From the NCBI GenBank assembly GCA_947090755.1, contig CAMUPF010000008.1:3901-67900 (forward strand): a stretch of DNA of 64,000 nt. Direction: 5' to 3'. Positions 1,774-57,251 of this stretch are shown here, one piece after another. The DNA comes from an uncultured Candidatus Melainabacteria bacterium (GTDB lineage: Bacteria > Cyanobacteriota > Vampirovibrionia > Gastranaerophilales > Gastranaerophilaceae). The position numbers were made by a program, and so were the translations under genes. Every line of letters starts with the position of its first letter. The stretch's first letter is position 1. The notes under the pieces are model-generated. The model ran no database searches. It was given only the letters and a program-made list of their open reading frames with translations, and had not been told where the DNA came from.

Positions 1774-1806
1774 TAGAAGAGGGGCAAATATCTTGCCCCT
1801 GTTGGA

Positions 1807-2947
1807 TTAGCGCTTGATACATCTTATAAGAGTTCCGCCGGATGTCCGTTCTTTAAGCATTCTGTCACCAGGCGCAAAGCCTATATAATAAGCTTTGTCC
1901 GCAGAAACGATTGTACTTGACCAGTATGAATTTGTGCCGTCCTCCAGTCCCCATAGTGTTCTGTTGAAAAACATTGAGGATAATTCTTCTATGTTTGGCA
2001 GCCTGCTTTCGCTGTCAAGTTGCTGGCACAATCGACCGGCATTTATTTGATTTCCCGCGGGAGCATTTTGAGGAAGCGGCAATGGCGCTACGACGACGGT
2101 ATCTGTCGGATAAAGCGCTGTAATTGCACCCATATCCTTGCCAAAAGTATTAGGGCCTTTGTTGCCGTTTAAGTCAAAAACAAAGTTTGCACACATCGTA
2201 GGCTGTGTGTATTCTCCGGTATTGGCAAGCCCCTGATTTGAGTTATGAAACCCGCAATTAGGATTATAGTAAACAACAATACTTTCGCCGTTTTGAGTTT
2301 CAAACGCCGCGGCTTTCGTATTTGTCTGGTTATACACGAAACTTGCTCCGTTAACGCTGTTTACGTGAGAACCCGAGAACATTGAATTTAAATCTGCCAG
2401 TGTTTTTGGAAACGATGAAATGGTTTGACCTTTTAGTGTTGTGAAAGTTGAGGTAATTCCGCAATCTGCGAGGTGTTCAGCGTCACATATATTGTTAATT
2501 TTAAGAACTTTTGCTAACCCTTCTGTAACGAAAGTTTCTGCGGCAGTGTCAGTTGTATCGTTTAATGTTCCGTAGCCGTTGAGTGATGGCATTAATGCGA
2601 TGGCCTGAGAGAATCTTGCATAAAGTGCCTTGCGTTGTGTGTTCCATGTGCGTTCGTTAATGTTACCCGTCAAACTAGGCAGCGTAATGGCCGCAACCAC
2701 GCCGATTATGGTTAAGGACAGCAGGATTTCGGCCATGGTAAAGGCCAAGCCGAGCAGAGCCACGGAGCAAGGCTTGCCTTGCGAAGAGACGAGCGTGCGA
2801 CGGTCAAGACCGCGCTCTTGACCGCTAACGCGAGCGGTGGCGTTTAACGCGAGGCGCAGTACCGGCGTTGCGTTAGCGTGCTCGGCTTGCCCCCCCCCCC
2901 CTACTGTACAGGCCCATATTACAAGGGGTTTCAGCTTTTGTGTTCAT
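1807..2947 (-). CDS. type IV pilin-like (prepilin) protein with DUF1566/Lcl-like C-terminal domain, paralog 1; frame broken at homopolymer tract
   Basis: ORF 1807..2763 carries A/FTMAEILLSLTIIGVVAAITLPSL (Phe+1, Glu+5 prepilin motif) and a C-terminal RLPNIEEL..YWSST..IRCIKR. SD GGAGG plus ATG at 2947 is one frame off and stops at 2873-2875. The pilin frame itself is open from 2943 downward. Confidence 0.7.
2764..2889. repeat. GC-rich hairpin-rich 126-nt block inside the leader-coding region of pilin paralog 1
   Basis: Stems gcaaggc/gccttgc (2767-2782), ggtcaaga/tcttgacc (2802-2823) and gctaacgc/gcgttagc (2824-2831 with 2870-2877). GC content is far above the flanks. No counterpart in paralogs 2 and 3. 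Confidence 0.6.
2890..2901. repeat. homopolymeric C12 (G12 on the coding strand) tract
   Basis: Counted directly: c at 2890, ten c at 2891-2900, c at 2901. Confidence 0.95.
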
Positions 2948-4364: not shown

Positions 4365-4529
4365 GAAAAAATTTCGTTTGCGAAATTTTTGAGTGACATT
4401 TAGACAGCGCAGCCATGCGCGGCCCAAGGTTCAGCGCGAGCGAGCGGAGTGCGAAGGACGGAAGTCCGAAGGCACGTTTTCCGCGAGTCGAGCAAGACAG
4501 CGGGGCGAAAATGGCGGAGTACTGCTTTT
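4365..4529 (+). repeat. GC-rich repeat element, copy E2 (degenerate)
   Basis: AT hairpin gaaaaaatttcg/cgaaattttt (4365-4390), core tttgagtgacatttagacagcgcag (4388-4412), 3-prime end ggcggagtactgctttt (4513-4529). Shares these blocks with copies at 48750 and 50825. Confidence 0.65.
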
Positions 4530-4530
4530 C

Positions 4531-10503: not shown

Positions 10504-11819
10504 AAGAGGCTGCAAAGGAATATTATTCGGCAGTTTATGGCAAAAAGAGAGAGTTTGACTACATCCCGCCAAGCGGTAAACTTTTAGGCGAAGAAGAGTT
10601 GATGAATATGATTGACGCTTCTTTGGATATGTGGCTTACGGCCGGAAGATTCAATAAAGAGTTTGAAACAAAGTTTGCGAAATATCTTGGTGTAAAATTT
10701 GCGCTTTCAACAAACTCCGGTTCAAGTGCGAATCTTCTTGCTTTTTCCGCACTTACTTCTCACAAACTCGGCGAACGTGCATTGAAGAAAGGCGACGAAG
10801 TTATCTCTGTTGCTGCAGGGTTCCCGACTACAATAAACCCGATTCTTCAACACGGCATGGTTCCGGTTTTCGTTGACTGTGAAGTCGGAACTTACAATAT
10901 CGACGCAGATAAAATTGAAGAGGCTATAACGCCGAAAACAAAAGCGATTTTCCTCGCTCATACGCTTGGAAACAGCTATGATTTAGACAAAATCATGGCG
11001 CTGGCAGAAAAATATAATTTATGGGTTATTGAAGACAGCTGTGACGCTCTGGGCGGTGAATACAAAGGCCGTAAAATCGGTACCATCGGACATATCGGAA
11101 CATTTAGTTTCTATCCTGCACACCACCTGACAATGGGTGAAGGCGGGGCGGTTATTACAAATGACCCTCAATTATACAAAATTATAATGTCATTCCGTGA
11201 TTGGGGCCGTGATTGCTGCTGTCCTCCGGGCCGTGACGGTGTTTGCGGAAAACGTTTCTCACAACAGTTGGGTAACCTTCCTTACGGTTATGACCACAAA
11301 TACACTTATTCTCACATTGGTTTTAACCTTAAAATTACGGATTGGCAAGCGGCTCTTGGCTGTTCACAAATTGATAAACTCGACAGTTTCTTAGAAATTC
11401 GTCGTCGTAACGCAGCACTTTTGACAGAAAAACTGGCGGATTTAAAAGATTACCTGATTCTGCCTGAGGTTAGAGAAGGTGTAAAACCATCTTGGTTCGG
11501 CTATTTGATTTCTGTTAAAGAAAACGCTCCGTTCACAAAACAAGAAATGGTTGAATACATTGAAAAGAAAGGTATCGGAACGCGTCAATTATTTGCGGGC
11601 AATATCCTCAGACAGCCGATGATTGTAGATAATGATGTTAATTTCAGAATTGGAAATTCCGGTTTGATAAATTCAAAAGATTTGACCGAAGAACATTATA
11701 AATTATTACCGAAAACAGATTTTATAATGAATAATACGTTCTGGGTGGGAACATTCCCTGCGCTTGGAGAAGACGAAATTTCAAGAATCTCAGACGCAAT
11801 TCATGCGTGTGTAAAATAA
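10476..11819 (+). CDS. rfbH: CDP-6-deoxy-D-xylo-4-hexulose 3-dehydrase (E1), DegT/RfbH family
   Basis: 447 aa. FRDWGRDCCCPPGRDGVCGKRF..YGYDHKYTYSHIGFNLKITD matches the RfbH-type cysteine-rich region. Sits after rfbF-rfbG. Confidence 0.8.
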   Translation: MEQELRNKVKEAAKEYYSAVYGKKREFDYIPPSGKLLGEEELMNMIDASLDMWLTAGRFNKEFETKFAKYLGVKFALSTNSGSSANLLAFSALTSHKLGERALKKGDEVISVAAGFPTTINPILQHGMVPVFVDCEVGTYNIDADKIEEAITPKTKAIFLAHTLGNSYDLDKIMALAEKYNLWVIEDSCDALGGEYKGRKIGTIGHIGTFSFYPAHHLTMGEGGAVITNDPQLYKIIMSFRDWGRDCCCPPGRDGVCGKRFSQQLGNLPYGYDHKYTYSHIGFNLKITDWQAALGCSQIDKLDSFLEIRRRNAALLTEKLADLKDYLILPEVREGVKPSWFGYLISVKENAPFTKQEMVEYIEKKGIGTRQLFAGNILRQPMIVDNDVNFRIGNSGLINSKDLTEEHYKLLPKTDFIMNNTFWVGTFPALGEDEISRISDAIHACVK

Positions 11820-11839
11820 AAGGCAGGAGCTATAGCCTG

Positions 11840-12979
11840 ATGAGCGTTGCAAAAGGTCAAAATTGCAGTATTAATTTTTTGAGATTTCTTTTTACATTCG
11901 GGATTTGCTTTATGCATCTTGTTTGTCAGGTGATTTCTCCCTATATTGCATATCCGTTGAACTATGGTAATTTTGCGGCACCTTCTTATGCTGTTGAATT
12001 ATTCTTCATAATGGCCGGTTTTTTCTTGTTTTTCAATAAAAAGCCGCTGGAGGAATACATTTCAAACCGTATAATAAGATTGTGGCCGTTGCTGGTGTTT
12101 TCAACTATTATTGCAGGGATTTTGAGAGCTTTGCATATATCAGGTATGTCATTGAAGTTTGATGATATTCTTAACTGCCTGTTTTTACAGGGAACAGGTC
12201 TGATGCAAGGCGGGGCGACTAATGGACCGGCGTGGTTCGTGGGTGTTTTGTTCTGGGTTTCTGTAATATATTATTATTGCAAAAGAGTACTTGGCAAGAA
12301 ATCATTTATTGCATTAATGATTGTTATGGCGGGTATTGGTTTGATAGTATTCGGAACCACAGGCAAGGCAAATCCGTTTGAAGGAGTCAGAGGATTCATT
12401 CTTCCCGCATGGGGGGGGGGGGGGATCTCTATGATGATGTTACGCGGTTTTACGGCTATAGGCATCGGATGTATTCTGGGAAAATTTCAGGAAATTTTTG
12501 CCGGAAGTCATGCTGCGCAGACCCTGCAAAGTGTTTCGGGCTCAAAGAAGCTTTTCACGGCTTTAGAAGTGATATTTTTCGTCGGACTGTGCGCAGTCTT
12601 ACTGGGAGGCAGCCTGATGAATATATATAGTTCTTATTTATTGGCTATGGGCTTATTTTTAATCGTGTTTTTCTTGTTTTTTAATAATTTAGGATATTTT
12701 TCCTCAAAAGTTCTAAACAGAAAAGTGTTTAATCTTCTCGGAGCTTATTCATACGCCATTTATATAATGCAGAATGTAGTATTTTATATTGTAGATTATT
12801 GTTTGAAAACTTACGAAAATCTAATTCCACATACAAATCTGGTTATAACAATTTCGATGATTTTATTTATTGTAATAGGAATTATTTCTTATTATCTGGT
12901 AAATTTCATCGTAGAAAAAACGGTACAGTTATACAATTTTATTCAAAGAGATAATATTTTAAAGGAGACAACTTTATGA
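11840..12979 (+). CDS. membrane acyltransferase family 3 (putative O-acetyltransferase), contains in-frame G14 tract
   Basis: Multi-TM ORF. The N-terminal FLRFLFTFGICFMH motif is typical of acyltransferase_3. ORF open from 11807, ATG 11840 follows AGGAG. The tract encodes WGGGG. Confidence 0.7.
   Translation: MSVAKGQNCSINFLRFLFTFGICFMHLVCQVISPYIAYPLNYGNFAAPSYAVELFFIMAGFFLFFNKKPLEEYISNRIIRLWPLLVFSTIIAGILRALHISGMSLKFDDILNCLFLQGTGLMQGGATNGPAWFVGVLFWVSVIYYYCKRVLGKKSFIALMIVMAGIGLIVFGTTGKANPFEGVRGFILPAWGGGGISMMMLRGFTAIGIGCILGKFQEIFAGSHAAQTLQSVSGSKKLFTALEVIFFVGLCAVLLGGSLMNIYSSYLLAMGLFLIVFFLFFNNLGYFSSKVLNRKVFNLLGAYSYAIYIMQNVVFYIVDYCLKTYENLIPHTNLVITISMILFIVIGIISYYLVNFIVEKTVQLYNFIQRDNILKETTL
12411..12424 (+). 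repeat. homopolymeric G14 tract (in frame, ON)
   Basis: Counted directly: 12411-12420 plus 12421-12424. Confidence 0.95.
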
Positions 12980-17973: not shown

Positions 17974-18695
17974 ATGAAAAGATTTCTAAGAAAAATTTTG
18001 GGTAAAAATAAAACGCAATATTATGACATTTGCGGGGATAATAATAAATTAATTATTATTGAAAATGGTGTTGAGCGTCTGGCGAACAAGGAAACTATTC
18101 TCGGTTTGTGGGTTTCGATACACGGAAATAACAATACCGTAAAGTTAGAACTTCCGATTCATTTTGAAAATTCATCTATTATAATTTCGGATTCTGATGA
18201 GGCTGACATTTTTATCCGCAAGACTCAGCATCACGTTAAAAATTTTTCGGTAAATTCACGCCTGCATAGCGGCCATAAACTATTTATTGATGAAGATTTT
18301 TATTGCAACGGGGCAACAATTTTGCTAAGAGAAGAAAACGCGTCGGTAAAAATAGGTAAAGATTGTATGTTTTCGTGGGGAATAACTATATGGACTTCTG
18401 ACGGACATTGTATTTTTGATAATACAACCGGCGAACTGTTAAATGACCCATCCGGGGGGGGGGGGGCCTCATCGGTAATCATGTATGGGTAGGCTGCAAC
18501 GTTAATTTATTGAAAAATTCGAAAATCCCTGACAATTCGGTCGTTGCGTTAGGGGCAATTATTTCTAAAAGATTTGATGAGGAAAATATTTTGCTCGTTG
18601 GCACAAATGAAGTTAAGAAAAGAAATATTCGATGGACAAGAGATTTTATAACTGATTATAAAAGGAGTAAATGTGAAAGTATTAATAGATTCTGA
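17974..18695 (+). CDS. left-handed beta-helix (hexapeptide) acetyltransferase, split by G13 tract (OFF frame)
   Basis: The upstream ORF ends 26 nt after the tract. The other frame reads LIGNHVWVGCNVNLLKNSKIPDNSVVALGAIISK, a classic hexapeptide transferase C-terminus. 14 or 11 G would fuse the two parts. Confidence 0.75.
18454..18466 (+). repeat. homopolymeric G13 tract
   Basis: Counted directly: 18454-18460 plus 18461-18466. Confidence 0.95.
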
Positions 18696-20197
18696 TTATT
18701 TTTTTATAAGGGATATGTATTATCGTTCCTGCGGCCATACACTTAATACTATTAATATTTTGAAACGTTTTTTCGGCGAAGATTTATTAAAGGATTTCAG
18801 GTGTGTTATTTCTGAAACTGTTTATTACCAGTTAAATGAAGAAGAATTATCCGGTATTAATCCTGTAGTGATTTTTGACAGGGAATTGCGGGATATTTTT
18901 GAGGATAAATTTATATCGCACAATGAAATTGTCGAAAAGTTTTATTACGGCAATTTGACCCCTAACAATCTACAGGATTTGAAGGCGCTTTATTCTCGCA
19001 AACTGGAAGGTTTTGTGCCGGATTTAGTTATGCAATTTGAATATCATAATAAATGTTATGACGATATTTTCCCTAAGGCGTTTAAATTAACCTTTCAGGG
19101 CGGACTTTTTAAAAGGGGAATTGGGCCTGAAACTTATATTATTGACCCCTCAGGCAGCTTTAAGGATTCATCTTTAAATATCTTTCGTGATGAAATTAAC
19201 AATTTCGTAATTTCTGAACAACAAAACACACTGATTGATAACTTTAAACGCCGCCTTAGTAATCTTATAAAAGAGAATACATCTTTTATTTCTACCTTAT
19301 TAGCGCCTTATAAAGAGAAGTTTGATTATCTTGTTTTGCTTCCGTTACAAATGAGTAATCATTATGGTTTTGATACTGAAACAGGATTTAAAACGCAGTA
19401 TGACTATCTTGAATATGTACTGGATAATGTTCCTAAAAATGTCGGGGTAATCGTAACAGAACACGACCATGGCCGTTTTCTTGAAGAAGGAACCTTCGGA
19501 AAAGGCGGATTCTTAGAATGGTTTGAAAACAAGTATGAAAATTTGGTATACATTAAAGAACTGCGGGGGGGGGGGGGGGTATTCCTCTCCGTCAATATAT
19601 TTCTTGCCGGAGGTTGATGCTGTGATAAATGTTTCGTCCTCAGTCGCCCTGACTGCAACTTTATTCGATAAAAGAATAATATCACTTGGTAAAACTTATA
19701 ATAATTGTTTTAAGGATACTCAGGGATTAGAAAACATTATTGAAGTTTTAAGCAAACCGGTTAGAAATAAAAATTCGTTTTTATTCTGGTTTTTGACTAA
19801 ATATGTTTTTTTCGAAAAACAGTTGAATGATAAATCTTTTATGTACCAATATTTATGTGATTCCATAGAAAAATTCAAGAATGAAGGAGTAACTTTTGCT
19901 TACTTTACGCAAATGAATGGAATCGAAGAGGCTTGTGATTCTATTGCAGGGTATATTGAAAATGTTTTCATTACAGAGCGCCGCAGGCAGGAAGATGAAA
20001 GGCTTGCGCAAGAGGCAGAAAGGCTTGCAAGGGAAAAGGAAATAGAAGAAGCAAGACTACGCGAAGAGGAGCGAAAACGGCGGATTGATAAAAAACGTGA
20101 AAGATGTAACCGGTTCGGAATCTATTACGAGGCAAAACATATTATTATCGGCCTGTTCGGGCTTAAAATAAAATTTAGAAACTATTTGGAGGAATAA
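18673..20197 (+). CDS. capsule-synthesis (KpsC/KpsS-like, PF05159-like) protein with C-terminal charged coiled coil, split by G15 tract (OFF frame)
   Basis: YLVLLPLQMSNHYGFD and VIVTEHDHG before the tract. YSSPSIYFLPEVDAVINVSSSVALTATLFDKRIISLGK after it, in the -1 frame. 14 or 17 G would fuse them. Family call by motif resemblance. Confidence 0.55.
19565..19579 (+). repeat. homopolymeric G15 tract
   Basis: Counted directly: 19565-19570 plus 19571-19579. Confidence 0.95.
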
Positions 20198-29296: not shown

Positions 29297-29325
29297 TTGA
29301 CTAAAGTGAAAAAATAATACATAAT
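29297..29325 (+). promoter_or_regulatory. sigma70-like promoter of pilin paralog 2 (conserved with copy at 63933)
   Basis: TTGACT 29297-29302, 17-nt spacer, CATAAT 29320-29325. The same architecture and downstream leader recur at 63933..64000. Confidence 0.6.
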
Positions 29326-29396: not shown

Positions 29397-30415
29397 ATGA
29401 AAAACAATATTGTAAACATTTTGACAGGGGGGGGGGGCCTCTCTTAACAGGCTTCACTATGGCGGAGATACTTCTGTCATTAACAATAATCGGTGTGGTT
29501 GCGGCGATAACGCTTCCGTCGCTGACAGGCAACATTAACGAACGCACATGGAACACCCAGAGAAAAGCACTTTATGCCCGTATGAGTCAGGCGATTGCCC
29601 TAATGCCGGCGTTGAACGGTTACGGAACTTTGACAGAGGGCAACGAATCAACGTCAGCCGTCGACACCGCTGCCGAAACTTTCGTCACGGAAGGCCTTTC
29701 AAAAGTTCTCAAAATTAATAATATTTGTGACTCCGACCACCTCGCGGATTGCGGTATACCTACCCAATTTAATAATATCGGTGGAGATGTTGTATCTACC
29801 TGGCCTCAAACTTTTGTTGCTTTGAACGGGATGTTTAACGGTTCCTATGAAAACTATGATGGTTCAAGTGTAAATGTTATTTGGACTTATTCACAAACAG
29901 ATACGAAAGTCGCGGCATTTGAAACCGCAAATGGAGAAAGCGTTGCTGCGTATTATAATCCTTATTGTGTAGGTAATTTTAATGAAACAAATGAATATTA
30001 TATTCAACCTAAAGTTTGTGCAAATTTTATATATGACTTGAATGGATCTAAAGGACCTAATACTGTTGGGAAGGACATTGGGTTTATGACGGTATTTTAT
30101 CCTACTGATTCAGTTGTAGTTGCGCCTCATCCTTCGGTTAGACTTGCGACAAACCAGCGGGTTGTGCAGGCTGAGGCAGGGGCGGCCTGTTTCGCGCTGG
30201 ATAATGAAACAAGAGTTCCCAATATTCATGAGATTGCGTCTATGTTTACGAATAGGCTGTTAATGAAATCTACAATCACTGAAACAGGAACTAATGGGAT
30301 TTGGTCGGGTTCAAAATATTCTGCGTCTTATGACTGGTTATTCAACTGGGCTTGTGGAAAATGTATGTTGAAAGACCATGCTTGGACAGGAAATGTTTGG
30401 TGTATAAATCGTTAA
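29397..30415 (+). CDS. type IV pilin-like (prepilin) protein with DUF1566/Lcl-like C-terminal domain, paralog 2; leader interrupted by G11 tract (OFF frame)
   Basis: RBS GGGAGAAAGGA, ATG 29397, MKNNIVNILT, then G11, then TAA at 29445. With 12 G the frame reads GGGGPLLTG/FTMAEILLSLTIIGVVAAITLPSL and joins ORF 29459..30415. C-terminal RVPNIHEI..IWSGS..VWCINR. Confidence 0.8.
29427..29437 (+). repeat. homopolymeric G11 tract
   Basis: Counted directly: 29427-29430 plus 29431-29437. Confidence 0.95.
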
Positions 30416-32077: not shown

Positions 32078-32161
32078 ATGAAAAACGCGGACACCGCTGC
32101 AGGAACCTTTGTCACAGAAGGGCTTTCCAAAGTACCTAAAATTTCTGGCAAAAATGAGTGA
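32078..32161 (+). pseudogene. remnant of a pilin-family gene
   Basis: 27-codon ORF MKNADTAAGTFVTEGLSKVPKISGKNE. The DNA aligns with paralog 2 (29668-29720, DTAAETFVTEGLSKVLKI) with mostly synonymous differences. It lacks the FTMAE segment and the C-terminal domain. Confidence 0.6.
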
Positions 32162-36609: not shown

Positions 36610-37980
36610 ATGGCTAATTCTTTGATACCTTATTCCTTTGTCCCCGGTACAAAAGCCATGGCAAGTGAAGTTAATGCAAACTTCATAGCGCTGGCAAATT
36701 CTGTAGAGGAGGGCAAACAATTTACTAACAAGGCAATCGAAAATTTTAATACGGAATTTGAAACGCGGCTTGATGAATTTGACGGAAAAGTCGGAGATAA
36801 ACTGGAGTTTAATATGTCAAACTCTGTGAATGTTTCAAACTGTATCGTAGAAGTTCCGCAGAATATAAAAGTAGAGTTTAATAACGGGACCGTAACTTTA
36901 AAGGCGGGTTCTGTGGTAACGGTTCCTGACGGGTTTGAAGAGGACGGTGTTACTGCAAAATTTACTTATCATACCGTTGAAAATGATGTTTCCGTGTCAA
37001 CATCAGGCGTAGGGGGAAGTTATGAGGATTTATTTACCTGTTATAATGTAACGACCGGTGATTTCGGAACATTGCGTGCGATGAGTACGGAAGGGGTTAG
37101 CGGCAATACGTTTACGCCTCCGGGGAGCGGCTTCGCTTTTTGGTTTGATAGGGCCTCCAATCTGGTTAAATATGTATCAGGCGGTGCTGTACAGTCCGGA
37201 AAATATTCACTGCCGCTTTTTACATTAAGAAATTCTGCCGCAAATTTGCTCGGTATAAATCAGGTGTTTAACGGTATAGGTTATATCGGCCAGACAACAT
37301 GGCTTGAAAAAGGTGTGAAATGTTTGTTTGCAGACGGAAGAAATTCTGACGGAACATTTAAAAATATTAGTGTTACCCAGCCGGCTATTACGTTAACAGA
37401 TTTGTACAATCAAACCAGCCAGATAGGGCAAATTATTTATAGTCAGACAACGAAACGAATACGTGTTTATGGTTATGGTCCGACGACGTATTTTATACAG
37501 GACAAAGTTCCTACCGGATTCGGGCAATATGCGCTCTGGTACAATTCACGGGAAAATATATTTTATGCAACTGCGGATTCAGGTTCTAACTGGGTTAAAG
37601 ACTATAGAATTATTTTACCGAAACTTACTAAAGCAAGTGAGAATGGAAATATTTCAGGGTTATCAGAAATTCATTCTTTATCAATTTGGGCACAGGCATA
37701 TATTACGAAAAGTTATGTAAATGGAACCTCCGGATATATTGTTTACAGTAACGGCTTCTGTGAACAATGGGGAAGAACGGGTGCTTCAGCCCAAACTGTA
37801 AGTTTGTTAATACCGCATAGAGATGTTAATTTCTCTGTAGTTGCGAGTTCCCGCGGTGGTGCTGCCACCCACACAGCCGGTAACCCTTCGGTAAATATTG
37901 TATCTAACGGGTCAATTACAGTAATTAACAATACAAATGATTATAATTCTGCGTTCTGGCAAACAAAGGGTTATATTTAA
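36610..37980 (+). CDS. phage tail-fibre-like protein (gp53-like C-terminal domain)
   Basis: The N-terminus YSFVPGTKAMASEVNANFIAL is typical of tail-fibre proteins. The C-terminus GFCEQWGRTGA..FSVVAS..FWQTKGYI resembles the gp53-like tip domain. Confidence 0.55.
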   Translation: MANSLIPYSFVPGTKAMASEVNANFIALANSVEEGKQFTNKAIENFNTEFETRLDEFDGKVGDKLEFNMSNSVNVSNCIVEVPQNIKVEFNNGTVTLKAGSVVTVPDGFEEDGVTAKFTYHTVENDVSVSTSGVGGSYEDLFTCYNVTTGDFGTLRAMSTEGVSGNTFTPPGSGFAFWFDRASNLVKYVSGGAVQSGKYSLPLFTLRNSAANLLGINQVFNGIGYIGQTTWLEKGVKCLFADGRNSDGTFKNISVTQPAITLTDLYNQTSQIGQIIYSQTTKRIRVYGYGPTTYFIQDKVPTGFGQYALWYNSRENIFYATADSGSNWVKDYRIILPKLTKASENGNISGLSEIHSLSIWAQAYITKSYVNGTSGYIVYSNGFCEQWGRTGASAQTVSLLIPHRDVNFSVVASSRGGAATHTAGNPSVNIVSNGSITVINNTNDYNSAFWQTKGYI

Positions 37981-37991
37981 GGAGAAAAATT

Positions 37992-38333
37992 ATGAGTTAT
38001 AAACTGGACAAACCATATACAGAGGAAAGCAGGCTTGATTTTATAGTTACCTACAACCATAATCAGGGCTTGTTAATAGAAGAAACAGAAGACGCATTGT
38101 ATGCACTTGAGGCAAATGAGGTTATGCAAGAGGGGGTGCCTGTTGTGGATTCAAATTATGAAACCCGATTGGCACGCGCACAGGCTGATGTGGAAATTGC
38201 AGAAATTAAGGAGCAGCTTGCGGAAATTGATTTGAAATCAATTCGTGCATTGCGTGCCGGAGAGAAAGATTATCTGCAGGAATATGAGGCCGAGGCCGTT
38301 GAATTGCGAAACCGGCTGGAGGCGTTGGAATAG
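37992..38333 (+). CDS. hypothetical protein (possible tail-fibre accessory/chaperone)
   Basis: 113 aa, coiled-coil C-terminus, placed 11 nt after the tail-fibre-like gene. Function inferred from position only. Confidence 0.35.
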   Translation: MSYKLDKPYTEESRLDFIVTYNHNQGLLIEETEDALYALEANEVMQEGVPVVDSNYETRLARAQADVEIAEIKEQLAEIDLKSIRALRAGEKDYLQEYEAEAVELRNRLEALE

Positions 38334-40157: not shown

Positions 40158-40202
40158 TCTTGTGTAATAATCAATATTGTGTTATGTTATACAGTGAAAT
40201 AT

Positions 40203-40276
40203 GTGCTTGTAGCTCAGCCGAATAGAGCGTTGGTCTCCGAAGCCAAAGGTCACGGGTTTGAATCCCGTCAGGCACA
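40203..40276 (+). tRNA. tRNA-Arg (anticodon CCG)
   Basis: Acceptor GTGCTTG/CAGGCAC, anticodon arm TTGGT-CTCCGAA-GCCAA, T arm ACGGG-TTTGAAT-CCCGT. Confidence 0.85.
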
Positions 40277-40282
40277 ATTTAA

Positions 40283-40356
40283 GGGCTCGTAGCTCAGTAG
40301 GATAGAGCAACGGTTTCCTAAACCGGAGATCGCGAGTTCGACTCTCGCCGGGCCCA
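40283..40356 (+). tRNA. tRNA-Arg (anticodon CCT)
   Basis: Acceptor GGGCTCG/CGGGCCC, anticodon loop TTCCTAA, T arm GCGAG-TTCGACT-CTCGC. Confidence 0.8.
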
Positions 40357-40363
40357 TTCTCTA

Positions 40364-40392
40364 TTGACCCGTTAGCCAATAAGTGGTATAAT
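40364..40392 (+). promoter_or_regulatory. consensus sigma70 promoter of pilin paralog 3
   Basis: TTGACC 40364-40369, 17-nt spacer, TATAAT 40387-40392. Confidence 0.65.
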
Positions 40393-40430
40393 AAAAACGG
40401 TATTATTTATAACGAGGGTATATTAAAAAG

Positions 40431-41408
40431 ATGAAAAGATTTTTTACGGTGAAATCTGCCGCTTTTACTATGGCCGAAATTCTGTTGTCTTTGACAATCA
40501 TCGGTGTTGTTGCGGCGATTACGTTACCGTCTTTGACCGGTAACATTAACGAACGAACATGGGCGACTCAAAAGAAAGCGCTTTATGCACGTATGTCACA
40601 GGCAATTCCGTTGCTTGATTCTATGAATACTTATGATGACGCCGAGTCTTTCATAGCAGGCGCATTGAATAAAGTTACTAAAATCAATAACGTTTGCGCG
40701 CAAGACCATTTGGAAGATTGCGGTATTAACAAAGATTTGTTAGGAAGACTTGCTGACGGTACGACAACTTCTTTCCCTGAAACCTGGTCTGCTTTAGGTA
40801 TTGATAAGCAATTCTCTTATGCTTCAGCAGCGGATGATACGGCAGAAGCAACTTCAAACAAAAAATTGAGTGCTAATCAGGCAATGGTTGCAGCATTTGA
40901 AACCGGAAACGGTGAATCAATTGTTCTTTATTACAACCCTGATTGTACTGCCGATCAGGAACAGGCGCCAAATGCCATTGTCGACGGTTCCGGTACAAAC
41001 TACATAGACATGTTTGATCACGTATGTATCAATATGATTTATGACTTGAATTCAAACAAAGGACCAAACGCAGTTGGTAAAGATATTGGATTTATGACTG
41101 TATTCTATCCTTCAGACGCAACGGTTGTTTCTCCGGTTCCTTACGTTCAGTCATCAAGCTCTGCGACTTGTGACAGCGAATACAGATTGCCTAACAGATT
41201 CGAAGCTGCGGCATTCGCTCTTAACTCTACTTTAATCAGCGCTACGGCAGAAGGCCCGTATTTAACATCAACTAAGGCGTCAACCGGTAATGATACTTAT
41301 GTTTATATTCAAGATAAAAATTCAAGCGGTGAAATCAAAGCTTATACTAAAAAGATAACCGACGGCGCCTCTGCAGGTGTTTCATTCTCCAGATGCGTAA
41401 AACGTTAG
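40431..41408 (+). CDS. type IV pilin-like (prepilin) protein with DUF1566/Lcl-like C-terminal domain, paralog 3 (no homopolymer tract)
   Basis: MKRFFTVKSAA/FTMAEILLSLTIIGVVAAITLPSLTGNINERTW. C-terminal YRLPNRFEAAAF..SRCVKR. Confidence 0.8.
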   Translation: MKRFFTVKSAAFTMAEILLSLTIIGVVAAITLPSLTGNINERTWATQKKALYARMSQAIPLLDSMNTYDDAESFIAGALNKVTKINNVCAQDHLEDCGINKDLLGRLADGTTTSFPETWSALGIDKQFSYASAADDTAEATSNKKLSANQAMVAAFETGNGESIVLYYNPDCTADQEQAPNAIVDGSGTNYIDMFDHVCINMIYDLNSNKGPNAVGKDIGFMTVFYPSDATVVSPVPYVQSSSSATCDSEYRLPNRFEAAAFALNSTLISATAEGPYLTSTKASTGNDTYVYIQDKNSSGEIKAYTKKITDGASAGVSFSRCVKR

Positions 41409-47207: not shown

Positions 47208-48374
47208 ATGAGTACTCAAAGTGTAAATTTAATAAATTCTAAGGATTTATCGTATCAGTACGACTGGTTTCAAAAAACATTTCCGCCGGTCGTACAGGAA
47301 GTTTTTGATAACTTTTTCGGGCAGAATTTCACGTTTACTCTTCTTGGCGTTTGTAAAAATGTCAATGCGGTTTCTGATAAGGATGCGTATTTTGTCACCA
47401 AAATTAAAATTGATAAACAGCATGATATCTTTTTCCGTATATCAGAAACCTCTATCTCGCTTATACTTGAGAGGGTTCTGGGCAGGCCAAACGGTGCGTT
47501 TGATTTGAATAAGCTTACTGAATTGGAAACTAAGATTATTACAACCTTTAATGATTGTCTTTACAGGTCTGTTGTTAACTTCCTGAAGCCTGCGCCGCCG
47601 ACTCTGGCAAGAACAAATTTTGATGTCGTATATCTGGTATTTATTCTGACCGATGGTGAAACAGGTAAATCCGGAAGGTTTGTTGTTACGCTCCCCGATG
47701 TCTTACTGGAGCCAGAATCTATTGAGGCTCAGGGCGAGTTTTCGGTAGAACATTTTGAAAAAAGTACAATTCAGGCCCGTTTAGAGGTTGGCAGGACTAT
47801 ATTTAAACTGCACGATTTGAAACACCTCGAAATTGATGATATGGTGGTGTTTGAAAATAGTAATACGGATAGATTAAAGTTGTATTTCAGGGATTATGAA
47901 ACGGATGTGTTGTTGAAACCTAATTTAAGTTTGGTGGTACCGGTTGATAATGATGGAGGTTCTGAGGTGTCAGAAAATGAAAATATAAATATTTGGGATA
48001 GTATTGAGGTTGAGATGGTCGGCCACTTTGATGCTGTTGATATTACGCTTGGTGAATTGAAGAAGATTCAGGCCGGAATGGTGGTTGATTTGACTTCAAT
48101 TTATCAAAACAGAGTGACGTTAACCGTTGAGGATAAACAGATTGCGTCCGGCGAACTTGTTATCATTAACGATAAGTACGGCGTGAAGATTACAGAAGTT
48201 TACGCTCCAAAAGCGGCGGATGAAATCGCTCAGGCTCCTGTATCGGAGGGTGTGCCTGCTTCTGATACGGTGGGAGCAGTGGATGATATCCCTGAGGTTT
48301 CAACCGGTGGAGATGGTGTCGGAGATGATGAAGAATTCGATTATAGCGATTTCGATTTAGAGGAGGATATTTAA
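47208..48374 (+). CDS. flagellar motor switch protein, FliM-like with C-terminal FliN/SpoA domain and acidic tail
   Basis: LILERVLGRPNG..LTELETKI (FliM middle-domain-like). The C-terminal LGELKKIQAGMVVDLTS..VEDKQIASGELVIINDKYGVKITEV is a SpoA/FliN fold signature. Confidence 0.7.
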   Translation: MSTQSVNLINSKDLSYQYDWFQKTFPPVVQEVFDNFFGQNFTFTLLGVCKNVNAVSDKDAYFVTKIKIDKQHDIFFRISETSISLILERVLGRPNGAFDLNKLTELETKIITTFNDCLYRSVVNFLKPAPPTLARTNFDVVYLVFILTDGETGKSGRFVVTLPDVLLEPESIEAQGEFSVEHFEKSTIQARLEVGRTIFKLHDLKHLEIDDMVVFENSNTDRLKLYFRDYETDVLLKPNLSLVVPVDNDGGSEVSENENINIWDSIEVEMVGHFDAVDITLGELKKIQAGMVVDLTSIYQNRVTLTVEDKQIASGELVIINDKYGVKITEVYAPKAADEIAQAPVSEGVPASDTVGAVDDIPEVSTGGDGVGDDEEFDYSDFDLEEDI

Positions 48375-48375
48375 G

Positions 48376-48849
48376 GTGACTTCTTATCTTTTGACTTTTA
48401 CGGTTTATACAATGGCTATGGTTGGCATGATTTTTCTTGCGCTGTTTGCTTATAAAAAGTTTTCTGTGCAAAATAATCGTGTTTCGCAATCAAATTTTCT
48501 TGAAGTTGAAGATTGCGTGACTCTCGGTATGCGTAAACAGTTGTATGTTGTAAGAGCAGGAGAAGAAAAATTTTTAATTGCGTCTGATGCAGAAAGAACG
48601 ACATTCCTTTCAAAACTTCAAAACTCAGAAACTCCACGAAAAGAAATTAGTTCCTTCGAGGCTATCGGACATTTTTACCCTGAGGAAGAGCGCGAAAATG
48701 TAAGGAAGGACGCTACGGCAGTTTTGAGAAATATAATAAGCACCCCGAGAAAATTTCGCGAAGAGCGAAATTTTGGAGTGGGGTATGAGACAGCGAAGCC
48801 GGGTACGGCCCGCGGTTCAGCGGGGCGGAGCGGCGAAGAACTGCTTTAG
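48376..48849 (+). CDS. fliO: FliO-like flagellar export protein; C-terminal tail encoded by the GC-rich repeat
   Basis: GTG start after AGGAGGA. Single N-terminal TM segment (TFTVYTMAMVGMIFLALFAY). Position between fliM-like and fliP. Confidence 0.6.
   Translation: MTSYLLTFTVYTMAMVGMIFLALFAYKKFSVQNNRVSQSNFLEVEDCVTLGMRKQLYVVRAGEEKFLIASDAERTTFLSKLQNSETPRKEISSFEAIGHFYPEEERENVRKDATAVLRNIISTPRKFREERNFGVGYETAKPGTARGSAGRSGEELL
48750..48848 (+). repeat. GC-rich repeat element, copy E3
   Basis: Hairpin aaaatttcgc-gaaga-gcgaaatttt (48750-48774), core ttggagtggggtatgagacagcgaag (48773-48798), end ggcgaagaactgcttta (48832-48848). Confidence 0.7.
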
Positions 48850-48862
48850 GAGAAAGAAGATA

Positions 48863-50814: not shown

Positions 50815-50824
50815 CTGTCCGAGC

Positions 50825-50933
50825 AAATCTCGCGATAAGGAACGTGAGCGAGATTTGGGAGTGGCGTATGAGACAGCGCAGTCGCGGGTTGACTCGCGTG
50901 AGCGAGGCAAGCAGGCGACGGAGAACTGCTTTA
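50825..50933 (+). repeat. GC-rich repeat element, copy E4
   Basis: Hairpin aaatctcgc-(14 nt)-gcgagattt (50825-50856), core ttgggagtggcgtatgagacagcgcag (50855-50881), end ggcgacggagaactgcttta (50914-50933). Confidence 0.7.
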
Positions 50934-55590: not shown

Positions 55591-55776
55591 ATGGCACCGG
55601 ATTTGAAAAAGATTGAACAGATGGCAGAAAAAATTCTTAAGATTATTATCGTTATGCGATATTATTGCAAGCAAAGCGAAGACGAGTATGAAATGGGGAA
55701 TGTCATACCGCTTATTGATATTTTATGGAAAGAATCTGACAATTTGGTTTGTGAAATTTGCGGGTTTAATGATTAA
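55591..55776 (+). CDS. hypothetical small protein
   Basis: AAAGGAG RBS, ATG 55591, 61 aa. Divergent from the XRE gene, with TTGACA-17-TATAAT in the spacer. Confidence 0.5.
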   Translation: MAPDLKKIEQMAEKILKIIIVMRYYCKQSEDEYEMGNVIPLIDILWKESDNLVCEICGFND

Positions 55777-57251
55777 AGTTCTTCGTAAATTTCAATCGGG
55801 GCGTAGAAGGAAACTTCTTCGCGCGCAAGAACACTGACTTCATTGAAATAGCTTGATAGCATTTTGAATATCAGGTGGCGGAATTCAAGCGGAACAATTA
55901 TTGTACGGCAATTGTATTTCGTCATTAGTTTTTCAAGCTTTTTAGCCAGTTGATCAGCGTATTTTGCGTCGATTTTGATGATTTCTTCGTCTTCCTCTTC
56001 TTCAACGGCTGTTTCGCAGACGTTTAGGAGCGAATCTTCTGTGATTTCGATTGCAGGGATTACGCCGTCTTCGTTTACAAAATTCCTTGTAATCTGGCGG
56101 CCGATTGAAAGACGCAGTTTGCGCAAAATGTCTGATTTGTCGCAATCGTTCGCAAAATCATTAATTTTTTCTAAAATAAATGTGATGTCTTTTATTGAAA
56201 CTCTTTCATTGATGAGGCTTGTCAGAATGTATCTTAAATCTGCAAGGGTTAAAAATTCAGGGATTAGGTTTTCGATTAAGTAGGAGTTGTTTTCATCAAC
56301 GACTTCGATGTAGTTGTCAAGTTCGTTGTAGTCTAAGATTTCGTCAACAAATTTTACAGCGATAAATTCCAGCGCGCGGGTTATGCATTGAGCGCCGGAA
56401 AGTCCTTTTTCCCAGAAGTCTTTGCATTTTGTTTTTGGAACCCATACGATTTTTTTGCCTGAAATGGCGTCATCGTCATAGATTGCGTCTTTAATTTTTT
56501 TGTCGGTAAGGATATTGTCAGCGAAAAACATCAGATGATTAGGGTAGACGATTCCTCTAAAGACTTCCAGCCCGCGGATTTTTATGGTGTATTCGTAAGG
56601 GCTCAGGGTTTCGTCGTCCTTAAAAACGATTTTAGGGATTACGTAACCCAGTTCTTCGGTGAGTTTAAGGCGAAGTTTGACGGTTTCTGCGATAAGTTCT
56701 TCTTCGTCGATATCCTGTTCTGCGTCGATGTAGCCGAGGATTTCTTCGCTTAAAGTTATGGCAAGCTTGTCTTCGTGAAGTTTTTTGTACATACCTTCGG
56801 GCGAAGTGGTTTCCGCAAGCTGGCGCTTGAGTTCTTCAAGTTCGCGCAAACCCGTTGATATTCTGTCGTTAAGGCGTTTGCGGCCAAGTGAGGCAGGCGC
56901 TTCGTTTTCGAGTTCTTTTTTTGCGCGTGCAACTTTGTTTTTAACTTCTTTGATTTTGTGTTGGATTTCAAGGCACGCTTCATAGGGTGTAAGTGTAGGG
57001 GATAGAAGTTTTTCCATCTGGCTTTTGAAGTTAGAGATGTTTATTTCGTCCGTGTTTCGGGTGTAATTTTCGTCTTCGGATTCTTTCATAAAAATGCAGT
57101 TGTACTGATAGCCTTCATCCATTTCGACTTCGTTGATGGTGTAGAGTTCCCAGCCGTTCATAGACATTTCGTTCAACAGGTTTTGAAGAGCCTGTGTGTC
57201 TTCGCTTGAACAGGTTTTGATAACATATTGCATTTTCTTGTTTTTAAACAT
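55773..57251 (-). CDS. soluble protein with DUF4177-like N-terminus, coiled coil and FlhA C-terminal (FHIPEP cytoplasmic) domain; no transmembrane region
   Basis: LTEELGYVIPKIVFKDDETLSPYEYTIKIRGLEVFRGIVYP and LTSLINERVSIKDITFILEKINDFA closely parallel conserved FlhA-C blocks. The N-terminus NGWELYTINE.. is DUF4177-like. Confidence 0.65.
   Translation of the reverse strand: MFKNKKMQYVIKTCSSEDTQALQNLLNEMSMNGWELYTINEVEMDEGYQYNCIFMKESEDENYTRNTDEINISNFKSQMEKLLSPTLTPYEACLEIQHKIKEVKNKVARAKKELENEAPASLGRKRLNDRISTGLRELEELKRQLAETTSPEGMYKKLHEDKLAITLSEEILGYIDAEQDIDEEELIAETVKLRLKLTEELGYVIPKIVFKDDETLSPYEYTIKIRGLEVFRGIVYPNHLMFFADNILTDKKIKDAIYDDDAISGKKIVWVPKTKCKDFWEKGLSGAQCITRALEFIAVKFVDEILDYNELDNYIEVVDENNSYLIENLIPEFLTLADLRYILTSLINERVSIKDITFILEKINDFANDCDKSDILRKLRLSIGRQITRNFVNEDGVIPAIEITEDSLLNVCETAVEEEEDEEIIKIDAKYADQLAKKLEKLMTKYNCRTIIVPLEFRHLIFKMLSSYFNEVSVLAREEVSFYAPIEIYEEL

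Follow-up and report, generated by a model that had tools for sequence, protein, structure and literature searches.

The gene at positions 40431-41408 raises the question of what kind of protein it encodes and how this protein relates to two similar genes in the same DNA. The window analysed, a stretch of 64,000 nucleotides from the uncultured gut genus Candidatus Gastranaerophilus, was originally predicted to carry three dispersed paralogs in which a type IV prepilin N-terminus is fused to a DUF1566/Lcl-like C-terminal domain, and reading of its open reading frames located all three at the predicted places; they are referred to below as g1, g2 and g3, the last being the gene at 40431-41408. 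The best reading of g3 is a modular type IV pilin-like protein of four parts, which would comprise a signal peptide of the prepilin type (class III), the invariant alpha1 assembly helix, a disulfide-bonded family-specific head and a C-terminal module derived from DUF1566/Lcl_C. The features of this locus are the following:

40364-40392, plus strand: promoter-like site TTGACC-17 nt-TATAAT with extended -10 TG, 11/12 matches
40414-40418, plus strand: Shine-Dalgarno-like GAGGG, 12 nt before the ATG (sequence reading)
40431-41408, plus strand: g3, complete gene including the stop codon, 325 aa (sequence reading)
40431-40463, plus strand: leader peptide MKRFFTVKSAA, 11 aa, basic, with Ala at -1 (sequence reading)
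40464-40598, plus strand: mature N-terminus (alpha1 assembly helix), first 45 mature residues (alignment, AlphaFold2 (AF2), PDB profile matches)
40599-41135, plus strand: family-specific globular head, residues about 57-235 (alignment, AF2)
41136-41405, plus strand: C-terminal module, residues about 236-325 (YRLPNRFE...YLTS...RCVKR; hhalign, AF2)

The three proteins share 42-58% pairwise identity, with E-values of 1e-66 to 1e-123 in tblastn and blastp searches, which found no fourth full-length copy within the window. The near-identical N-terminus and the conserved central block expected of these dispersed paralogs were recovered in the alignment, where the string FTMAEILLSLTIIGVVAAITLPSLTGNINERTW(N/A)TQ(R/K)KALYAR and the block AAFET.NGES..YYNP.C...C.N...DLN..KGPN..GKD.G form invariant columns. 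Beyond the window, tblastn confirmed at least 449 family loci and 2264 related proteins were found at E<=1e-3; the family is lineage-wide and not a set of three genes, and its size had been understated. The best 80 of the at least 449 loci come from six metagenome-assembled genomes (MAGs), which are labelled Gastranaerophilus, Gastranaerophilales or Melainabacteria except for one labelled Fusobacterium sp.; two single genomes of ~2 Mb contribute at least 20 copies each. Mature family proteins measure 295-338 residues, and the outer domains are the variable parts among paralogs in the alignment. The family is best read as confined to Gastranaerophilales, a ~2 Mb genome carrying at least 20 complete genes that each have their own promoter. 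Literature on Gastranaerophilales or Melainabacteria combined with pilin, phase variation, homopolymeric tracts or poly-G yielded nothing on this family.

The assignment of the N-terminus to type IV prepilins holds, as judged by its defining sequence features, by matches to helices in the PDB and by the predicted structure, together with HMM scores just below the cut-offs. The cleavage region of g3 (MKRFFTVKSAA/FTMAE, the slash marking the predicted cleavage site) combines a short basic leader with Ala at -1, Phe at +1 and Glu at +5; the corresponding regions are ...GGGGPLLTG/FTMAE in g2 when read in frame and ...LLGLA/FTMAE in g1, and position -1 is Ala or Gly across paralogs. A hydrophobic stretch of about 20 residues with Gly14 and Pro22 follows, reading FTMAEILLSLTIIG(14)VVAAITLP(22)SL in g3. 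Matches of the family to PDB sequences are confined to pilin or pseudopilin N-terminal helices (geopilin, PilA, GspG), and AF2 predicts a 48-residue N-terminal helix for g3. The g3 protein scored 14.4 bits against TIGR02532 (cut-off 16.3) and 16.0 bits against PF07963 (cut-off 21.2), reaching neither threshold; PF07963 was matched by 32/65 relatives at E<=0.01, and the names given to relatives by NCBI include 'prepilin-type N-terminal cleavage/methylation domain-containing protein'. Identity with GspH, ComGE or GspG was rejected: the best NCBIfam matches cover the N-terminal helix only and lie far below the cut-off, TIGR01708 (GspH) reaching 17 bits on g3 against a cut-off of 80 bits over residues 12-58 only, and no GspH-domain match was obtained in Pfam.

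The full-length AF2 model of g3 (pLDDT 89, pTM 0.83) has a helix over residues 14-61 and beta strands after it, with pLDDT around 90 or above in the head. The head contains four conserved cysteines (C89, C97, C172 and C199) and the central block in the form FET.NGES..YYNP.C...C.N..YDLN..KGPN..GKD.G. It had no PDB sequence or fold match, and a Foldseek search with the full-length model gave no PDB fold at E<0.05 (best E 0.05, TM about 0.1). Residues 60-325, that is the head and the C-terminal module together, matched 384 clusters at 50% identity among 1.84 billion representatives. The same g3 protein is present in identical form on at least 7 contigs, and syntenic orthologs share 70-72% amino-acid identity and 76-79% nucleotide identity over about 6 kb.

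The DUF1566/Lcl-like nature of the C-terminus, the second half of the predicted fusion, stands at the level of the family and of g1 and g2, and is weaker for g3. PF07603 (Lcl_C) was matched at 19.2 bits by g1 (E=0.0015) and at 16.5 bits by g2 (E=0.011), both below the gathering threshold of 34.9, whereas neither PF07603 nor any other Pfam family matched the C-terminus of g3. Among relatives the domain was found in 18/65 at E<=0.01 (best E 5e-8), and it also appears in precomputed annotations; we take DUF1566/Lcl_C to be IPR011460. A profile of g1/g2-type C-termini (A4, with g2 a member) aligned to residues 98-163 of the solved Lcl C-terminal domain (Lcl-CTD, PDB 8Q4E) with E=1.2e-5 over 67 positions, including the core motifs RLP..EL, YWSS, W, G and vR.V. 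The C-terminus of g3 aligned to DUF1566-type paralogs with an hhalign probability of 98.8% over the first 63 columns only; the module is bracketed by the invariant C247 and C322 and retains YRLPN..E and RCVKR, while YWSS and W of the core motifs are gone. AF2 modelled this domain alone with pLDDT 82, and the expected C-type-lectin-like fold did not emerge, since Foldseek returned neither that fold nor Lcl or any other PDB fold for the model (best E 0.4). The C-terminal module of g3 may accordingly be read, with less assurance than in g1 and g2, as a divergent DUF1566/Lcl_C derivative, and the module would bind a ligand, probably a glycan. Diversity-generating retroelements, of which DUF1566 and C-type-lectin folds are known targets, were also considered; the window showed no template-repeat-like copy of the C-terminal regions.

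The other two paralogs differ from g3 in their leaders, and their features are given here, first for g2 and then for g1:

29297-29325, plus strand: g2 promoter-like site TTGACT-17-CATAAT
29397-29426, plus strand: g2 leader head MKNNIVNILT with the true start codon, after GGAGAAAGGA (sequence reading)
29427-29437, plus strand: g2 poly-G tract, G11, in the leader-coding region; OFF as sequenced, in frame at G12 or G9
29453-30415, plus strand: g2 mature pilin-like coding region from Phe+1 with stop codon; C-terminus DUF1566-type
29459-30415, plus strand: g2 mature-frame ORF, with the upstream ATG at 29397 in another frame (ORF reading)
32090-32146, plus strand: relic of a family member, corresponding to g2 residues 69-87 with 81% nucleotide identity
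2977-3005, minus strand: g1 promoter-like site TTGACA-17-TAAAAT
2902-2947, minus strand: g1 true start (ATG 2947-2945, GGAGG before it) and leader head MNTKAETPCNMGLYS(R)
2890-2901, minus strand: g1 poly-G tract, G12 (C on the plus strand); OFF as sequenced, in frame at G11 or G14
2743-2889, minus strand: g1 inserted element of 147 nt from the tract to the Phe+1 codon; 65% G+C, palindrome-rich
1807-2742, minus strand: g1 mature pilin-like coding region with stop codon; DUF1566-type C-terminus (SRLPNIEEL...YWSS...RCIKR)
1807-2763, minus strand: g1 mature-frame ORF, with the upstream ATG at 2947 in another frame (ORF reading)
1780-1800, minus strand: terminator-like hairpin directly 3' of g1

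In each of the two genes the poly-G tract separates the upstream ATG from the FTMAEIL codons, and each is OFF in this sequence. With one G more (or two fewer), g2 would read through as MKNNIVNILTGGGGPLLTG/FTMAEIL, and its type of leader head, MK(N/K)x(x)V..L(T/S/A), is repeated in paralogs elsewhere. Removal of one G from g1 gives a leader of 68 aa ending in LGLA/FTMAEIL, within which the inserted element, open in the pilin frame, would be translated. Copies of this element occur in other pilin leaders in both orientations; no structured RNA was detected in the insert, and Rfam matched only tRNAs on the window. The exact g2 protein does not figure among called genes, the next-best among 5.8 billion proteins being 67% identical, and a second assembly of g1 or g2 was looked for and not found.

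The poly-G arrangement is general in the family, where 66/81 paralogs with readable upstream sequence carry a tract of G8-G16 with a modal length of 12-13, and most copies are out of frame when only the MK... start codon is counted. One related gene has G13 in loci L085-L088 and G12 in L089-L091, from different metagenomes, with flanks and 900 nt of gene body 99.3-100% identical; the orthologs L015 (G13) and L023 (G14) show no other difference across 280 nt, and tract-length variants also occur within 90% clusters. One-base differences between assemblies could in part be homopolymer sequencing or assembly error. The prediction that two of the three genes are phase-variable is supported by the position of the tracts, the frame arithmetic, their recurrence among paralogs and the G12/G13 polymorphism of a relative, natural length polymorphism having been seen in related family members and not in g1 or g2 themselves. 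The window, at 39.4% G+C, contains five G/C runs of 11-15 bases, against an expected number of about 0.002 estimated from base composition. Three more poly-G genes of the window lie in a glycan/sugar-modification cluster, so that poly-G switching would be used generally by this organism.

The leader of g3 has no homopolymer tract, and the leaders of its orthologs read MKNIFSKAFGA or MRKLFSKTSAA. Its near-consensus promoter, already pointed out from the sequence, is real as a pattern and loses its value as a distinguishing mark, because good promoter-like sites precede g1 and g2 as well; what sets g3 apart is the missing tract. The region upstream of g3 is conserved in the orthologous loci L006-L010. 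Since the tract is absent, the promoter is close to consensus and synteny is conserved, g3 is read as the putatively constitutive, non-phase-variable and syntenically conserved member of the family.

The identity of the N-termini reflects selection. Over 45 residues the helix is 97% identical in amino acids among copies, while third-codon-position identity is 0.43-0.49 against the 0.45 expected from column composition, and no within-genome pair exceeds 0.80 at third positions. Since the amino acids do not vary whereas the synonymous sites are random, purifying selection maintains the helix, and gene conversion was rejected as the source of the identical N-termini. The reading frame is also kept through the long leaders: where 80-552 nt separate the tract from Phe+1, the frame of the pilin is open in 37/39 loci and each of the two other frames in 0/39, which indicates that these leaders are translated. 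Their inserts are GC-rich and palindromic. Prepilin peptidase substrates with leaders of up to ~190 residues have no known precedent.

It is reasonably probable, in our judgement, that the family consists of modular type IV pilins expressed combinatorially through slipped-strand phase variation. Slipped-strand mispairing would alter the length of the tract and bring the pilin in or out of frame, so each cell would express a stochastic subset of the family. Because the first ~45 mature residues are the same in all copies, one prepilin peptidase could process all of them and all could fit the same filament core. A prepilin leader stays in the cytoplasm and is then cut off, and for this reason it could carry a run of Gly residues, or even long in-frame elements, with the mature protein unaffected. 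After cleavage the proteins would be assembled into type IV pili and displayed at the surface, although with 300-340 mature residues they are large for subunits of a filament body. Scans of the window and of about 0.56 Mb from related loci, with the Walker A and Asp-box motifs of PilB/GspE, the GxGDxK motif of PilD and, on 30 window ORFs, Pfam, detected neither a prepilin peptidase nor an assembly ATPase, a platform protein or a secretin. The case for a pilus assembly machinery comes from one paper on a congener, Ca. Gastranaerophilus termiticola, for which pilA, pilB, pilC, pilT and pilD were reported (PMC5877343).

More tentatively, and as a possibility that falls somewhat short of probable, these observations may point to a hitherto undescribed kind of combinatorial display on pili, in which dozens of poly-G-gated pilin genes, each complete and with its own promoter, share one rigidly conserved helix, g3 supplies the constant subunit and the leader offers a safe harbour for elements. 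A population would then keep sampling different sets of lectin-like pilus surfaces. Small palindromic mobile elements would enter at the codons of the cleavage site, with duplication of AFTMA, and be carried in frame; they could extend prepilin leaders to as many as ~190 residues that would still require processing.

Rather less likely is that the proteins serve as alternative major (body) subunits, which would give antigenic variation of the whole pilus and escape from IgA or pilus-specific phages. Variation would then resemble that of Neisseria PilE, achieved by switching whole genes on and off and not by recombination with silent cassettes, and g3 would be the default major pilin. The 45-residue invariant region passes from the hydrophobic alpha1-N into the amphipathic, neighbour-contacting part, which suits interchangeable subunits; variability is confined to the outer domains, g3 combines a near-consensus promoter with being the sole syntenically conserved copy, and a smaller canonical pilin was not seen in the window or the related loci. 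However, mature proteins of 295-338 residues are about twice the size of typical type IVa major pilins, and the C-terminal module is of a fold class that binds ligands. The body-subunit and adhesin readings are compatible with each other.

Improbable is the suggestion that the class III signal serves for export or membrane anchoring only, the products being binding proteins that do not polymerise or form a short pseudopilus. Precedents are the pseudopilus set of type II secretion or competence and, as an analogue, the 'bindosome' of archaea, whose sugar-binding proteins have signals of the prepilin type. Several relatives are named 'type II secretion system GspH family protein' by the NCBI pipeline, the best NCBIfam matches (ComGE, GspG and GspH, over the N-terminal ~50 residues only and far below cut-off) point the same way, and the genes are dispersed with none adjoining a pilus operon. 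Against this, neither the GspH body domain nor any other pseudopilin body is matched, Gly14 and Pro22, the helix-breaking hallmarks of polymerising type IVa pilins, are both present, and anchoring alone is hard to square with extreme purifying selection over the 45 N-terminal residues. That g1 and g2 are decaying pseudogenes whose poly-G runs are artefacts or mutational debris and switch nothing is very improbable: although both genes are out of frame, some assemblies break or have Ns at the tracts, homopolymer lengths are error-prone and the relic at 32090-32146 is genuine, the ORFs 3' of the tract are intact over >300 codons in essentially all copies, the tract occupies the same place in 66/81 paralogs from independent short-read and long-read assemblies, the long leaders keep frame in 37/39 loci, one otherwise identical gene occurs both in frame and out of frame, each state in several independent samples, and there are five tracts of at least 11 bases where about 0.002 would be expected by chance.

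Combinatorially expressed modular pilins would matter in several respects. Gastranaerophilales are widespread uncultured gut relatives of Cyanobacteria, and a strongly selected, stochastically controlled family that occupies dozens of genes in a ~2 Mb genome is likely to be central to attachment (to mucus, food particles or cells) or to evasion of IgA or phages. If true, this family would provide a natural test of how far type IV filaments tolerate interchangeable bulky subunits and of how long a prepilin leader may be. Poly-G contingency loci, best known in Campylobacter, Neisseria and Haemophilus, would be extended to a commensal of a different phylum. For metagenome annotation, the tracts cause family genes to be systematically mis-started (MQGGGG starts), split or mis-named ('GspH family').

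Among known switching systems, a pilin family gated by poly-G is not known from Campylobacter. In Neisseria, Opa and PilC have simple-sequence repeats in the signal-peptide-coding region, the repeat of PilC being poly-G. The window family would resemble Opa in being a separately promoted family of surface adhesins with a translational switch set by leader repeat length and with most copies OFF. Opa proteins form beta-barrels in the outer membrane and have a Sec signal peptide, their repeat being CTCTT, whereas the window family is pilin-like, has its switch in a cytoplasmic class III leader and belongs to a gut relative of Cyanobacteria and not to a proteobacterial pathogen. Neisseria PilE has a constant N-terminus of ~53 residues and a variable C-terminus; as would hold for the window family, the assembly helix stays the same while exposed parts vary, and pilus diversity arises in one lineage. 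PilE uses one expression locus, silent pilS cassettes and RecA-dependent gene conversion; unlike it, every variant of the window family is a complete gene, synonymous sites are without recent conversion, and copies would be selected by frame switching. Background on Opa is given in PMC3745409, and the context of PilE antigenic variation in PMC4877100 and PMC4569582. The Campylobacter jejuni poly-G 'phasome' is similar in that a low-G+C genome has many G/C tracts, concentrated in genes for surface structures; phylum and target genes differ. Papers on this phasome include PMC6321876 and PMC8355987.

On the side of protein architecture, the Lcl-CTD of Legionella pneumophila (8Q4E) is C-type-lectin-like and binds sulphated glycosaminoglycans (PMC11162425), and the g1/g2-type C-termini align with it through conserved core motifs. 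Lcl is a trimeric collagen-like protein exported by type II secretion with a CTD devoid of disulfides (PMC11162425); unlike it, the window family has the domain bracketed by two invariant cysteines and joined to a pilin. Modular pilins have been defined as an N-terminal pilin module plus an extra domain that is not restricted to pilus biology (Raynaud et al. 2021, PMC8179133), and the window family, with its pilin module and added C-terminal domain, falls within this definition. Catalogued architectures include IPR012902-IPR011460 in 7 proteins and IPR012902-IPR011871 in 40 proteins (PMC8179133). There is a close likeness in design to PilB (vWA module) and PilC (lectin module) of Streptococcus sanguinis, in which a pilin module made of a class III signal peptide, alpha1 and a small head likewise bears a C-terminal ligand-binding graft (PMC8179133). 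S. sanguinis has one or two modular minor pilins, located inside the pil operon and not phase-variable, in contrast to the window family with its at least 20 dispersed monocistronic copies per genome, invariant 45-residue N-terminus and mostly poly-G-gated expression. Modular pilins are already established as a concept; what differs here is the many dispersed copies and the poly-G gating in the prepilin leader.

Three prepilin-like paralogs of the window (g1, g2 and g3) are best read as modular type IV pilins of one family: a pilin module would be joined to a DUF1566-derived module, slipped-strand phase variation within the leader would diversify expression, and g3, the gene under study, would be the constitutive core member. 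All three open reading frames of the original prediction were found, together with a short family relic:

40431..41408, plus strand: g3, intact, 325 codons
29397, plus strand: ATG start of g2, followed by ten codons and then the tract
29427-29437, plus strand: g2 tract, a run of 11 G
29453..30415, plus strand: g2 pilin-like frame, different from that of the ATG at 29397
2947, minus strand: ATG start of g1, upstream of the tract
2890-2901, minus strand: g1 tract, a run of 12 G
2743-2889, minus strand: g1 post-tract insert, 147 nt, 65% G+C
2742..1807, minus strand: g1 pilin-like frame, out of register with the ATG
32090-32146, plus strand: family relic, 57 nt, 19 residues, detected by tblastn

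Pairwise protein identity among the three genes is 42-58% (E 1e-66 to 1e-123), and the nearest relative of g2 found anywhere by protein search reaches only 67% identity. The relic, 81% identical to g2 codons 69-87, sits in a 27-codon ORF (MKNADTAAGTFVTEGLSKVPKISGKNE); tblastn revealed no fourth full copy in the window. The predicted common N-terminus and central block both reappeared as invariant columns of the family alignment, which also contains six conserved cysteines, exactly six being present in 75 of 87 relatives.

In all three genes a short leader ending in Ala or Gly immediately precedes FTMAEILLSLTIIGVVAAITLPSL, and the mature N-terminus reads Phe+1, Glu+5, a hydrophobic stretch of about 20 residues, Gly14 and Pro22, the pattern of type IVa pilins. 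Scores fell just under the cut-offs for TIGR02532 (14.4 vs 16.3) and PF07963 (16.0 vs 21.2), and NCBIfam matches to ComGE, GspG and GspH were confined to the first ~50 residues. In the PDB, a 65-member family profile had no matches other than N-terminal helices of pilins and pseudopilins. AlphaFold2 modelling from the 65-member alignment was confident (pLDDT 89, pTM 0.83) and placed a helix at residues 14-61 ahead of a mixed alpha/beta body; Foldseek found no PDB structure resembling this model.

The proposed DUF1566 domain, now Lcl_C (PF07603), holds for the family as a whole and for g1 and g2, and is only partly demonstrable for g3. Pfam matches to Lcl_C were below threshold on g1 (E 0.0015) and g2 (E 0.011), absent on g3 and present in 18 of 65 relatives (best E 5e-8). 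A profile built from 18 C-termini of the g1/g2 type matched 8Q4E, the C-terminal domain of Legionella pneumophila Lcl (E=1.2e-5), with the RLP..EL, YWSS, W, G and vR.V positions aligned; this domain has been described as C-type-lectin-like and glycosaminoglycan-binding (PMC11162425). The C-terminus of g3 represents a sub-type, carrying YLTS(T/S)K in place of YWSS and a divergent second half; it aligned to the DUF1566-type profile with 98.8% probability only over the first 63 columns, and its domain-only model (pLDDT 82) had no fold match in the PDB. The DUF1566-derived module is probably glycan-binding.

The claim that g1 and g2 are phase-variable was borne out by the tracts in their leaders, both out of frame, and by the wider family. 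Of 81 paralogs searched as far as 700 nt 5' of Phe+1, 66 contained a G8-G16 tract (modal length 12-13), the simple gene form, as in g2, being MK(N/K)x(x)V..L(T/S/A)-(G)n-PLLTG followed by FTMAEIL. Counting only MK starts preceded by a Shine-Dalgarno sequence, any single assembly has the majority of copies out of frame. A 90%-identity cluster of one related gene comprises 382-aa forms beginning MKNRRNVSMYAGGGG, 373-aa forms from a spurious MQGGGG, and shorter forms. DNA of the same gene from different ENA samples has G13 in four contigs (L085-L088) and G12 in three (L089-L091), the 70 nt before the tract, 153 nt after it and 900 nt of body being 99.3-100% identical; between two other orthologs (L015 and L023), G13 versus G14 is the sole difference in 280 nt. 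These are direct evidence that the tract length of the related gene varies in nature; one-base homopolymer differences may be technical errors, though each state recurs in several independent assemblies. In some paralogs (L028, L035, L041, L045, L053, L085-L088 and others) the leader head runs into the tract through ...(Y/H)A (TAT GCA GGG...), and this junction contains another, overlapping ATG in the +1 frame (t ATG CAG GGG), from which gene callers annotate MQGGGG... proteins at one of the two tract lengths that count as "off". If this ATG is used, the switch would have three levels.

In 39 paralogs the tract is separated from Phe+1, as in g1, by 80-552 nt of G+C-rich DNA with many short palindromes. 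The g1 leader element (~145 nt, palindrome-rich) has no Rfam match and recurs in both orientations in leaders of other paralogs in other genomes (L024, L028, L033, L063, L070). The pilin frame lacks stop codons in 37 of the 39 long leaders and each other frame is stop-free in none; the long stretches are therefore maintained as coding sequence. They would be translated as leader and then removed on cleavage, which is plausible because in prepilin topology the leader remains on the cytoplasmic side. Several relatives (loci L029, L037, L054, L074; proteins P0060, P0064, P0115, P0377) have a second AFTMA (or AFTMT/ASTMA) just upstream of the true site, followed by (D/A)RLSR... and then A and FTMAEIL, which suggests that small hairpin elements have inserted into the codons of the cleavage site (around CCATGG, a palindrome), duplicating ~15 nt of target sequence and leaving the frame intact. 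Three G+C-rich islands of ~110-140 nt were also observed at gene boundaries (about 4390-4530, 48745-48860 and 50820-50930), with a common layout of an A/T-rich hairpin (…aaatttcgc…gcgaaattt…), then gagtgg..atgagacagcg.agcc… and a gaactgcttt end. One of them overlaps sequence resembling the leader inserts. None matches Rfam; the islands may represent a repeat element or an RNA.

A sugar-nucleotide/glycan biosynthesis cluster at ~7.1-21.3 kb (DegT aminotransferase, acyltransferase_3, cytidylyltransferase, epimerase) has three further tracts, one in frame and two out of frame; an acyltransferase carries one, and two ORFs lacking annotation carry the others:

12411-12424, G14; 18454-18466, G13; 19565-19579, G15: tracts
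11807..12979: acyltransferase ORF, in frame
17938 (start): ORF, OFF; product of 252 aa if one G is added
18673 (start): ORF, OFF; one G fewer gives a 507-aa protein, without Pfam match

The organism therefore uses the poly-G mechanism broadly. By eye, the 252-aa product resembles a hexapeptide-repeat acetyltransferase.

Across 87 paralogs, identity over mature residues 1-45 is 97%, partly by construction at residues 1-8 and 26-33, which served to find the genes, and not at the other positions. Recent gene conversion as the source of identical helices is excluded, since third-position identity in identical, degenerate codons 9-45 (0.49 within genomes, 0.43 between) is as expected from column composition (0.45) and no within-genome pair exceeds 0.80. 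Very strong constraint acts on the helix protein sequence itself. A search with the globular part only recovered 139 new representatives, 54 with exactly FTMAEILLSLTIIG and another 42 with other N-terminal variants, some in several clusters (e.g., FTMAEILISLTIIGVIAAITLPSLRANINE). We infer that the helix is fitted to one common processing and assembly apparatus per lineage.

The family's two most conserved peptides located at least 449 confirmed loci in a scan of species-representative genomes, and protein searches returned more than 2000 relatives. All of the best 80 loci belong to six MAGs whose labels read Candidatus Gastranaerophilus, Gastranaerophilales or Melainabacteria, with "Fusobacterium sp." as the NCBI label of one; at least 20 different copies among these 80 come from the closed chromosome OZ007029.1 (2.02 Mb), and at least 20 from the MAG CALUQY01. 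JAMPIJ01 ("Fusobacterium sp. isolate NALB_7963_5"; L010-L012, L020, L022 and others), with at least 15 members and a syntenic g3 ortholog, is almost certainly a mislabelled Gastranaerophilales genome. A divergent member at L059 (5134-6078, plus strand), 1.2 kb downstream of a standard copy, shares the head and DUF1566-type C-terminus and has a different N-terminus, MNIRVGLLDRAKKRA followed by FTLVEVVIALTVVGVVTVLTLPAL.

The g3 globular part alone matched just 384 clusters among 1.84 billion cluster representatives, and the body is therefore lineage-specific. Orthologs of g3 (70-72% identity) occupy the same genomic position, between a U32 peptidase with two tRNA-Arg genes and a GAF-HD gene, in a region of 76-79% nucleotide identity over ~6 kb; g3 is the conserved member of the family. 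The tRNA-Arg pair directly 5' of g3 (40202-40356) is inverted in three of five orthologous loci (L006, L009, L010), the flanks still being collinear. Two ORFs at 36610-38333 (plus strand; 456 and 113 aa, without Pfam match) adjoin g3 in other contigs of the strain too; to the eye, the first has a phage tail-fibre-like N-terminus (MANSLIPYSF..ASEVNANF).

The three genes are monocistronic and dispersed, each with its own sigma-70-like site, and a terminator-like hairpin follows g1. The consensus-like promoter predicted for g3 was found as TTGACC-17-(TG)TATAAT, the sites of g1 and g2 being TTGACA-17-TAAAAT and TTGACT-17-CATAAT. Pilus machinery was absent from the window and from ~0.56 Mb of related loci; the evidence for it consists of pilA, pilB, pilC, pilT and pilD reported in Ca. 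Gastranaerophilus termiticola (PMC5877343) and a complete set of type IV pilus genes in Vampirovibrio. An FlhA-like ORF (FHIPEP; 55773-57251, minus strand) matches only profile positions 310-653, with the ~300-residue N-terminal membrane part not in frame upstream, and is possibly a flagellar export gene in decay, though 47208..48374 holds a FliN-domain gene.

If the proteins polymerise, variable members might be displayed at the pilus tip, as proposed for modular pilins (PMC8179133), or in place of g3 along the filament, and switching could provide adhesin choice, or antigenic and phage escape. Each single ingredient is already known. What was not found in the literature searched is the combination: complete pilin genes by the dozen in each small genome, a 45-residue helix that selection keeps invariant, poly-G gating within a class III leader and in-frame inserts lengthening that leader; its weight rests on cleavage, assembly and binding, all predicted. 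Modular pilins are established, the catalogue holding seven proteins with prepilin-plus-DUF1566 architecture (IPR011460, presumably DUF1566/Lcl_C) and 40 with prepilin-plus-IPR011871 (PMC8179133). The present family has the same architecture, a pilin module with a grafted module. Repeat-mediated switching acts in the signal-peptide regions of Neisseria Opa and PilC, whereas here the poly-G gate lies in a class III leader; PilE combines a constant helix with a variable head, and here the 45-residue helix is invariant. The poly-G phasomes of Campylobacter have their counterpart in the poly-G gating seen here, and the glycan cluster of the window resembles the phase-variable glycan loci of that genus.
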